DNA from: a phage | Reading direction: 5' to 3' (one strand) | Length of the DNA: 64,000 nt | Assembly: GCA_024614665.1 (NCBI GenBank) | Contig: GCA_024614665.1_4861.1 | Shown here: positions 48,205 through 49,146 of the stretch, piece after piece | How positions within the stretch are numbered: position 1 is the first letter of the stretch | How the letters are laid out: each line of letters begins with the position of its first letter | Notes under the pieces: model-generated | What the model was told of the DNA's origin: nothing | What the model saw: the letters and a program-made list of their open reading frames with translations, nothing else | Databases searched by the model: none | Translations under genes and position numbers: made by a program

Positions 48205-48492
48205 ACTGGCCTCACGTCATATAACGCACGAGCATCGTGAGCGCCATCAATCCCAGTAAAATGGGTATTAAGCCTTTCGGCCAGTCGTCGTTGTCGTATT
48301 GCATGGCTTTACCCTCCGACAGAAGATCGCACGTAATAGTTTGAAGAACCCAGAATCGTAATACGTTTCCGGAACGGTTCGTACTTCAGGGAACATAGGC
48401 GGAGTTGGACGGTGGGTCATTACGTTTTCTCCTTGCGGCAAACACAAGGGCACGCCAGATAGCTTTCATTAAGGTAGCAAACCAATTCTGTT

Positions 48493-49146
48493 TCATTTGC
48501 ACATCCCCAACTTAGCCGCGTAGTCTGGCATTTCCTGATAGACGCGCCCATACCAGCCGTAAGTAAACTCTTCGTTATCCTCACGCCTTTCACTGATTTC
48601 CGTGTAGTACGCTACCTGATGACAGGTTAAAGCGAACATCAGTCGATTCAGGCCCTCTTCCCCACGAGCTTTGATAAAGCCTTCTAACGCTGTTAACGTA
48701 CGTGGACCAATACCGCCATCTGCTTCGATGTCGTCGTACAGTTTACCCTGACGGTTTAATACGTTCAGAATACGCTGCAGGGACTTGATACAGTTGCCAC
48801 GACCTGCGTTGATGCCGAAATCAAACATCCGGTCAGCTAGCAGGACATTCATTTTCATAATCTGGTCTAAGCGCATCCGCTGCCACCAGAGCTTGTTGTA
48901 AATGTCTAACGCGGTTTCTAGGCTCAGGTCACGCATATCCCCTTTATAGCCATATTCACGCGCCGTGAGTTCGGTGACACCACGGTTCGTTGCTTTACCC
49001 AAATCTTTCGGGTTATTAACGTAACCGGCTTCGATGTTTACTTTGGCACGAATAATGCCCTCTTTACTCCAACGATCGACCACGATAACCTCCTGAGTTG
49101 ATAGGGTCATAAAAAGAAAGCCTCTTCCCCGTGGGGAAGAGGGCAT
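48493..49146 (-). CDS. GH108-type lysozyme (N-acetylmuramidase) with putative peptidoglycan-binding C-terminus
   Basis: EAGYVNNPKDLGKATNRGVTE matches the GH108 EGGYVNDPxDxGGxTxxGIT motif; ATG at 49146 has GAGGAT RBS, alternative ATG at 49110. Confidence 0.65.
   Translation of the reverse strand: MPSSPRGRGFLFMTLSTQEVIVVDRWSKEGIIRAKVNIEAGYVNNPKDLGKATNRGVTELTAREYGYKGDMRDLSLETALDIYNKLWWQRMRLDQIMKMNVLLADRMFDFGINAGRGNCIKSLQRILNVLNRQGKLYDDIEADGGIGPRTLTALEGFIKARGEEGLNRLMFALTCHQVAYYTEISERREDNEEFTYGWYGRVYQEMPDYAAKLGMCK
49111..49142 (-). terminator. hairpin terminator/attenuator candidate lying inside the 5' end of the GH108 ORF
   Basis: hairpin CCTCTTCCCC-AC/GT-GGGGAAGAGG followed on the minus strand by CTTTCTTTTT; lies between the two candidate ATG starts of the GH108 gene. 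Confidence 0.4.

Follow-up and report, generated by a model that had tools for sequence, protein, structure and literature searches.

What do three very short open reading frames (ORFs), packed between a muramidase gene and the next enzyme gene of a jumbo phage, do for the phage, if they are genes at all? The question was raised by a 64,000-nucleotide (nt) stretch of phage DNA (contig GCA_024614665.1_4861.1 of GenBank assembly GCA_024614665.1; hereafter the window, meaning this stretch at its full length), in which three ORFs with start signals, here called A, B and C, fill the junction between a GH108 muramidase gene and a DUF1353 gene. Sequence comparison identified the window as part of an SPN3US-like jumbo phage (genus Seoulvirus). 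The 2.4 kb round the three ORFs displayed 95-99% identity with 33 SPN3US-like jumbo phages of this genus (Salmonella, E. coli and Proteus); identity with the Erwinia jumbo phages in Erskinevirus and Machinavirus was about 70%. All genes of the unit are found on the minus strand, in the order terminator, GH108 muramidase, A, B, C, DUF1353 protein, M15-like peptidase, terminator (Table 1). The three ORFs are unannotated in the RefSeq record of SPN3US, and other GenBank records call only one or another of them as a "hypothetical protein". Judged from sequence, A, B and C appear to be conserved, largely unannotated mini-genes within an apparent muramidase/phospholipase lysis unit.

The initial annotation had located the ORFs, their start signals and their flanking genes as we find them. 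The ATG of A overlaps the TGA stop of the GH108 gene as ATGA, the ATG of B is preceded by an AAGGAG motif 8 nt ahead and that of C by a GGAGGG motif 7 nt ahead, and Pfam agrees on the flanks (GH108 and PG_binding_3 on one side, DUF1353 on the other). The same annotation described the ORFs as mutually overlapping and as occupying all three frames of one strand, and reasoned that not all of them were likely to be real. Neither description held. The ORFs form a chain in which A and B share 35 nt and B and C share 37 nt, with A and C lying 81 nt apart, and only two frames are used: A and C have a common frame, and B lies in the frame of the endolysin (GH108), DUF1353 and M15-like genes. Three ATG-initiated ORFs of at least 30 codons span 285 of the 296 nt; in 20,000 mononucleotide shuffles, the probability of at least three such ORFs was 0.0033 and that of a coverage equal to or above the one observed was 0.0003.

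With the three-frame premise false, the argument against some of the ORFs lost its basis, and the pattern of selection spoke for all three. The homologous junction was compared in 16 isolate genomes and about a dozen metagenomic relatives reached via the DUF1353 protein. In its own frame, ORF A displayed a nonsynonymous divergence (dN) of 0.19-0.31 with saturated synonymous divergence (dS) against SPAsTU, pEa_29, phiEaH2 and Asesino, and in the other two frames of the same region dN was about equal to or higher than dS in most comparisons. The own-frame coding signature was found again when A was compared with two more distant phages. For the core of ORF B (DSGFFKLLRAIFxRRV), the own-frame dN was around 0.1, with dS again saturated, as against 0.36-0.63 when the other frames were read. 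ORF C gave an own-frame dN of around 0.3, also with saturated dS, and differences at codon positions 1, 2 and 3 numbered 13, 5 and 18, a pattern usual for a transmembrane domain (TMD) or hydrophobic helix. The initial annotation had considered that its case would fall if synonymous sites backed none of the three frames and had proposed a look at frame conservation in related phages; this comparison revealed a coding signature in the own frame of A, of B and of C, with dN mostly equal to or above dS in the two remaining frames of each.

The conserved cores of the three ORFs lie outside the overlaps. The overlapping tails (A from residue 26, the N-terminus of B and the last 13 residues of B) are poorly conserved and vary in length. 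The RRV residues of B are retained via synonymous changes in Erskinevirus, which has no C, and the basic cluster of A is retained in the same way in two metagenomic phages without B (L038 and L042). Purifying selection thus acts on each ORF in the frame that it would be read in, and diverged relatives carry the ORFs again, each with a start codon and a Shine-Dalgarno sequence belonging to it; we conclude that A, B and C are each very probably a real coding gene.

ORF A encodes a peptide of 24-37 amino acids (aa) across the relatives. Its consensus, MKxNWF-x-TLM(K/R)A(I/V)(W/G)RAL(V/L)(F/A)A-x-RRKR, is followed by a loose tail. The peptide has a net charge of +6, a hydrophobic moment (muH) of 0.5-0.6 and a mean hydrophobicity (<H>) of 0.3-0.4, with conserved K/R residues at positions 11 and 15 on one helix face. 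This helix is not a predicted TMD, as it contains these two conserved basic residues and has a Hessa sum of +6 to +9 kcal/mol. AlphaFold2, run with four family members, predicted one helix (residues 5-26) and a disordered tail, and the predicted local distance difference test (pLDDT) score was 81-89 in the first 20 residues; according to this model, A is one cationic amphipathic helix with RRKR at the helix end. Seoulvirus and Erskinevirus carry A, and shortened forms were found in the two more distant metagenomic phages L038 (34 aa, MNWFAKLLALLWKALTSGRKRK...) and L042 (24 aa, MNDNWFVILMRGIWQAVKNRLKRT). The start of A overlaps the GH108 stop as ATGA or GTGA in 9 of the 9 independent lineages that have A, and A matches the PHROGs family phrog_25143, which has no annotated function. 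One base at position 48389 (minus strand), within both A and B, is peculiar to this genome: it changes the TAA stop of A to TAT, so that A is extended from 33 to 36 aa, and also results in a K9M change in B. The TAA is kept, with A made of 33 codons, in the three other SPN3US-like genomes read (SPN3US, SaP7 and phage 1252). A dual-start motif of the holin/antiholin type was considered for A, with an in-frame GTG or ATG 2-3 codons upstream, and was left unproven because those codons fall inside the endolysin coding sequence and too near any Shine-Dalgarno sequence.

The conserved part of ORF B is a basic amphipathic helix of 11-13 residues (GFFKLLRAIFxRRV), with a charge of +2 to +6 and no TMD. 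Its start lies within the 3' end of A. The last 13 codons of B (CNTTTTTGRKA) correspond to a read-through specific to the SPN3US clade: the stop/start junction of B and C is ATGA in SPAsTU and pEa_29 and ATGC in the SPN3US clade, where B reads 13 codons into C because TGA became TGC. B was found by tblastn in 42 phage records, and it is confined to Seoulvirus and Erskinevirus, always alongside A. Between its N-terminus and that of a single gene found in Machinavirus (Caitlin-type phages), 8 of 18 residues are identical (E=2e-6).

ORF C was described by the initial annotation as having one transmembrane helix, and our prediction agrees with this (Kyte-Doolittle hydropathy of 2.6 over 15 residues; summed Hessa free energy of about -1 to -1.4 kcal/mol). 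An N-out/C-in topology is predicted because of the acidic N-terminal tail and the basic residue after the TMD (positive-inside rule). The C-terminus, VRYMT, has this one basic residue followed by 3 more residues, and the Machinavirus forms end in KVALS. C in this form is restricted to Seoulvirus, where the records of SaP7, phage 1252 and SPAsTU call it hypothetical, and it is always found directly upstream of the DUF1353 gene, with its stop 7 nt before the DUF1353 start. At the same place, Machinavirus encodes one gene of 38-52 aa whose acidic stretch and TMD align with C; this gene runs into the DUF1353 start (as ATGA or, by 1 nt, as TGATG) and matches phrog_26367, a family with no annotated function. 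Another peptide of 33-37 aa, with a TMD between an acidic tail and a basic end, is joined by ATGA to the DUF1353 start in the IMG/VR phages L026-L028. The relationship of both B and C to one Machinavirus gene, by fusion or fission, argues for a joint function.

Among the relatives, the junction contains A, B and C, or A and B, A alone, a C-like gene alone, or none of them. In relatives in which the DUF1353 gene is not beside a GH108 gene, no such small peptide genes were found. Pfam searches with A, B and C gave no match, and tblastn searches of 50,697 phage records with the single peptides returned nothing credible beyond Seoulvirus and Erskinevirus. A word-indexed search of 5.8 billion proteins, with aligned pseudo-proteins made by concatenating A, B and C as the query, gave 5 matches, all from the same phage clade, and a HMMER search with an A profile, run exhaustively over 1.84 billion representatives, recovered only the two known clusters.

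The enzymes encoded on either side provide the context for these peptides. The GH108 muramidase has neither a signal peptide nor a TMD. Its longest ORF begins at position 49146, within the upstream terminator hairpin; the start annotated in SPN3US (ATG at 49110) has no Shine-Dalgarno sequence, and a GTG at 49083 is preceded by AGGAGG and gives a protein of 196 aa, a length as in relatives, so this GTG may be the true endolysin start. The DUF1353 protein, which also lacks a signal peptide, matches PF07087 with a score (Table 1) above the Pfam gathering cut-off of 22.5 bits. For TtaP, the DUF1353 protein from the typhoid toxin islet, a 2024 study demonstrated phospholipase A2 (PLA2) activity with the catalytic residues H70, D71 and D85; TtaP is encoded next to the phage-type muramidase TtsA and has no secretion signal, and its authors favoured a perturbation of membranes, possibly the outer membrane (PMC11525133). 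In the phage protein, H87-D88 and D113/D118 are invariant in 7 diverged relatives, D113/D118 being candidate counterparts of TtaP D85, and by sequence the window protein is a member of the TtaP-type PLA2 family. A search of its sequence against the PDB gave no meaningful match. RefSeq and PHROG 1158 label the gene "tail assembly chaperone", a label that is probably a misannotation because PLA2 activity has been demonstrated for the family and the phage homologues all keep the catalytic-type HD pair.

The last gene of the unit encodes an M15-like peptidase, for which the Pfam family Peptidase_M15_3 was sub-threshold and an SxHxxGxAxD motif (SMHKFGNAFD) is present. The virion mass-spectrometry table of SPN3US (PMC5105663, Table S4 copy) has no row for gp156-gp159 and lists the neighbours gp155 and gp160; the main text of the same study counts gp158, which tailless particles lack, among the low-abundance virion proteins outside the head (PMC5105663). 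The absence of gp156 and gp157 from the table fits a non-structural role at the lysis stage.

Taken together, these observations lead us to favour, slightly above even, the view that A, B and C are real genes of one late unit encoding membrane-active mini-proteins that help lysis. The best reading by analogy is that A and B would be disruptin- or melittin-like and that C would be holin-like or serve as an anchor; we infer translation, membrane activity and a role in lysis for the three peptides. In the mechanism that we propose, A would be produced by termination-reinitiation at the muramidase stop (ATGA), in step with the muramidase. The muramidase, the PLA2 and the peptidase have no export signals and would need breached membranes. 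C would insert in the inner membrane and either depolarise it in the manner of a holin or serve the PLA2 as an anchor or docking site, while A and B would bind anionic membranes and loosen them. Loosened membranes may then let the enzymes escape and expose phospholipid to the PLA2 as a better substrate, so that outer-membrane rupture could be completed. The initial annotation had suggested holin/antiholin-like or spanin-like partners of the lysozyme among these ORFs. The link to lysis fits both the operon and the chemistry, with C as the holin-like member; the spanin-like part was not borne out, as there is no lipobox or periplasm-spanning domain.

The closest precedent for A is the "disruptin" gp28 of phage phiKT, an amphipathic protein of 56 aa and charge +7, encoded between the endolysin and holin genes (order 27-28-29), which replaces spanins (Holt et al., bioRxiv 10.1101/515445). 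Like gp28, A is small, cationic (+6 versus +7), predicted to be helical and amphipathic, devoid of a signal or TMD, and encoded directly after the endolysin gene; B resembles gp28 loosely in size class, charge and position. By description, A therefore looks like a disruptin, and B loosely so. There is no sequence similarity between gp28 and A, and gp28 has no homologues beyond near-identical phages (bioRxiv 10.1101/515445). The two genomes also differ in that phiKT has no spanins, whereas the genome studied here has a spanin-like pair of a TMD protein and a lipoprotein, to which PHROGs assigns no function.

A second likeness, which is an analogy and not a homology, is to melittin: in both peptides, a mostly hydrophobic amphipathic stretch of around 20 residues leads into a basic cluster (KRKR-type in melittin, RRKR in A). 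Hydrophobicity and moment of A were similar to those of melittin in the same script, in which melittin, TisB and Pf3 served as reference sequences. Melittin and PLA2 are the textbook case of synergy in bee venom, and the A gene lies two genes from the PLA2 gene. Type I toxins such as TisB and Hok are small and pore-forming, and C is comparable in size and shape to single-helix membrane toxins of the TisB type; unlike these toxins, A, B and C show no sign of an antisense RNA or of toxin-antitoxin logic, and Rfam found no match in the whole window, which leaves a structured-RNA explanation of the locus without support.

With holins and pinholins (lambda S105, phage 21 S68, T7 gp17.5 and the class III holin gp142 of phiKZ; PMC12894885), C shares a small size, a TMD and a place in an endolysin operon whose endolysin has no signal. 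A TMD is predicted in C and not in A or B, and all three lie between the endolysin gene and the downstream enzyme genes. The position-equivalent one-TMD genes of Machinavirus and of L026-L028 look like classic holin slots. C differs from holins in that they have a charged cytoplasmic C-terminal domain and C, at 30 aa, has a cytoplasmic end of 3 residues. The predicted orientation of C is opposite to that of phiKZ gp142 and T4 T, and C is missing in close relatives that keep the endolysin. None of the three peptides resembles a spanin: they are 30-50 aa long and have no lipobox and no coiled-coil periplasmic domain. A and C have no cysteine, and the residues ahead of Cys34 in B, A-I-F, do not make up a lipobox; relatives have F or L in place of this cysteine. 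The TtsA/TtaP pair shows the same pairing as the unit, with a phage-type muramidase beside a DUF1353 PLA2, neither having an export signal (PMC11525133). TtaP is 125 aa long and the phage DUF1353 protein 213 aa, about 90 aa longer, and the paper on the typhoid toxin islet mentions no small peptide genes (PMC11525133). The lysis cassette of phiKZ is made of five genes and is organised differently (PMC12894885).

Several observations weigh against a lysis role for A, B and C. In pEa_SNUABM_6 and in the metagenomic phages L040 and L043, the GH108 gene directly abuts the DUF1353 gene with nothing between; Erskinevirus has no C, and Machinavirus has neither A nor B. The peptides are thus evolutionarily dispensable, and the absence of some or all of them in relatives points to accessory modulators and not to a sole holin or spanin. 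To our knowledge, all characterised holins are longer than the 30 aa of C. The dN/dS values come from short blocks (16-30 codons) in few independent lineages, and a search of the SPN3US literature for proteomics or ribosome profiling on A, B and C found none. Gp28 is hydrophilic according to its authors, with 15 of 56 residues charged, and A, with its narrow polar stripe, far exceeds it in hydrophobicity, which makes the disruptin analogy structural only. Finally, a scan for TMDs and lipoboxes covering the whole SPN3US genome revealed a separate candidate lysis set in the same genome, also present inside the window. It consists of a transglycosylase, a protein with two TMDs, a TMD/coiled-coil protein and a lipoprotein (Table 1), and its layout resembles, by sequence features, that of a holin with a separated i-spanin/o-spanin pair; PHROGs gave no function for any of the four genes. 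With this second candidate set present, lysis can be explained without A, B and C, which need not be a holin or spanin. In this set, the start Met annotated in SPN3US for the i-spanin-like protein (MLWEAF) is an Ile here (ILWEAF), and for this reason the real start must lie upstream, in the stretch MSMIASVF...

The main rival is that the ORFs are real small genes with a function other than lysis, moron-like cargo inserted in a permissive junction and riding the late operon, which could act in superinfection exclusion, defence or counter-defence, or manipulation of the host membrane. We consider this unlikely, though several features speak for it: presence is patchy, with differing combinations at one junction among close relatives, the families are limited to one jumbo-phage clade, and the genome has a separate holin/spanin-like cluster elsewhere. 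Cargo would not be expected, however, to have its start joined to the muramidase stop in all lineages with A, nor a stop that overlaps the PLA2 start, as in the C-like genes of Machinavirus and L026-L028, or lies as near to it as that of C in Seoulvirus. It would also not be confined to genomes in which the GH108 and DUF1353 genes adjoin. The stop/start fusion and the dependence on this adjacency point to a function with the enzymes and not to random cargo.

A bolder version of the lysis reading, which we hold to be unlikely, is that the unit would be a venom-like lysis device. A, with B, and C would breach or prime the membranes for a cytoplasmic PLA2 with no canonical holin or spanin, and the muramidase and the M15-like peptidase would join in dismantling inner membrane, wall and outer membrane. 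Such a device would also be the phage ancestor of TtsA/TtaP, the pair with which Salmonella Typhi releases its toxin.

It is improbable that the unit is an entry module, in which a tail-associated muramidase, PLA2 and M15 peptidase would serve envelope penetration with the peptides as assembly or insertion helpers. DUF7941 and GP38 domains mark the neighbours as virion- or tail-fibre-like, gp158 is named as a minor non-head virion protein, and the DUF1353 gene has its "tail assembly chaperone" label in PHROGs and RefSeq. Yet gp156 and gp157 are missing from the very table that lists gp155 and gp160, no experimental basis was found for the chaperone label, which conflicts with the PLA2 activity of the family, and the Machinavirus module is located beside radical-SAM and DUF4376 genes and not tail genes.

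That translation is limited to one or two of the ORFs, and that the conservation of the others results from overlap, regulatory constraint or chance in short alignments, is very unlikely. The blocks compared are short, the RRKR codons of A double as the Shine-Dalgarno sequence of B and the RRV codons of B as that of C, and the overlapping tails (A residues 26-36, the N-terminus and the C-terminal extension of B) are the poorly conserved parts. The cores, in contrast, lie outside the overlaps and have a coding signature in their own frame only; the basic clusters persist where there is no downstream ORF (for B in Erskinevirus, for A in L038 and L042), and each ORF occurs alone in some lineage. 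Highly improbable, lastly, is that the ORFs are pieces of one product, either a gene broken by frameshifts or endolysin-A and B-C fusions made by programmed frameshifting: the single Machinavirus gene with its B-like N-terminus and C-like remainder and the A-AAA-TGA junction of phiEaH2, Asesino and L038, at which a -1 slip is conceivable, would allow it, but the slippery site is not conserved (C-AAA-TGA in the window, C-AAG-TGA in SPAsTU), for which reason the fusions were rejected, the ORFs have their own starts (with clear Shine-Dalgarno sequences for B and C and coupling to the muramidase stop for A), selection acts in two different frames, unlike in a decaying pseudogene, and A+B, A alone and C-like alone are all stable states.

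A literature search found no paper on how SPN3US-type jumbo phages lyse their hosts, and the SPN3US literature on holins, spanins and proteomics yielded nothing for this locus but gp158 as a minor virion protein. Only the cassette of phiKZ has been dissected, and it is differently built (PMC12894885). Should A and B be membrane disruptors, they would represent a second, conserved family beside the lone phiKT disruptin, with many sequence variants. Should C work with the DUF1353 enzyme, it would offer a handle on the intracellular control of a signal-less PLA2, a question left by the TtaP study. Short cationic helices coupled to a Gram-negative endolysin may also be of interest for engineered lysins.

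Table 1 Positions in the window of the three small ORFs, their start signals, the genes and terminators of the unit, its neighbours and the second candidate lysis set
Feature	Position	Strand	Description
ORF A	48386..48496	-	36 aa here, 33 aa in other SPN3US-like phages; MKQNWFATLMKAIWRALVFAARRKRNDPPSNSAYVP; ATGA overlap with endolysin stop
ORF B	48268..48420	-	50 aa; variable polar N-terminus and conserved basic amphipathic helix DSGFFKLLRAIFCRRV
ORF C	48212..48304	-	30 aa; MQYDNDDWPKGLIPILLGLMALTMLVRYMT; acidic N-terminal tail, single TMD, one basic residue
Shine-Dalgarno sequence of ORF B	48429..48434	-	AAGGAG; made by RRK codons of ORF A
Shine-Dalgarno sequence of ORF C	48312..48317	-	GGAGGG; made by RRV codons of ORF B
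GH108 muramidase with PG_binding_3 (SPN3US gp156 endolysin)	48493..49110	-	PF05838 E=2.4e-18; PF09374 E=4e-20; PHROG 315 endolysin
DUF1353 protein (SPN3US gp157)	47563..48204	-	213 aa; PF07087 63.8 bits, E=1.2e-17
M15-like peptidase (SPN3US gp158)	47038..47553	-	Last in unit; PHROG 894 endolysin E=2.8e-26
Intrinsic-terminator-like hairpin with T-run	49121..49142	-	9-bp stem, 6 GC pairs, CTTTCTTTTT tail
Bidirectional terminator-like hairpin	46915..46945	.	13 bp; 3' boundary of unit, against convergent lipoprotein gene
Lipoprotein gene (SPN3US gp159)	46364..46945 region	+	MKRLFIVFAIINLLAGC...
DUF7941/Gp38-type protein	49189..51366	-	725 aa
SLT transglycosylase	9260..9982	-	N-terminal signal or signal-anchor-release (SAR)-like segment
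Protein with two TMDs	8352..8618	-	86-88 aa
TMD, coiled-coil, Pro-rich protein (i-spanin-like)	4554..5069	-	156-171 aa
Lipoprotein	4065..4544	-	159 aa; lipobox LLTGC; immediately after TMD/coiled-coil gene

The upstream hairpin ends the tail-fibre-like gene that precedes the endolysin and forms the 5' boundary of the unit; a weaker terminator-like match was found within the M15-like gene. The protein encoded upstream of the endolysin has a DUF7941 domain and a T4 Gp38-type adhesin domain with glycine-rich repeats, and small DUF7941 paralogues turn up repeatedly around the module in relatives. At the other end, the downstream hairpin lies between the unit and the convergent lipoprotein gene gp159, and several small neighbour genes in relatives likewise encode lipoproteins. 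One further arrangement, the IMG/VR locus L029 with a short DUF1353 gene by a lipoprotein and a protein with two TMDs, was considered as a lysis cassette and dropped, as it had no PHROGs support. Many of the SPFM jumbo-phage records (GenBank LR535901-LR535917) align to the region in 26-32 short pieces and contain chimeric small proteins, which suggests indel-rich assemblies and not real divergence.

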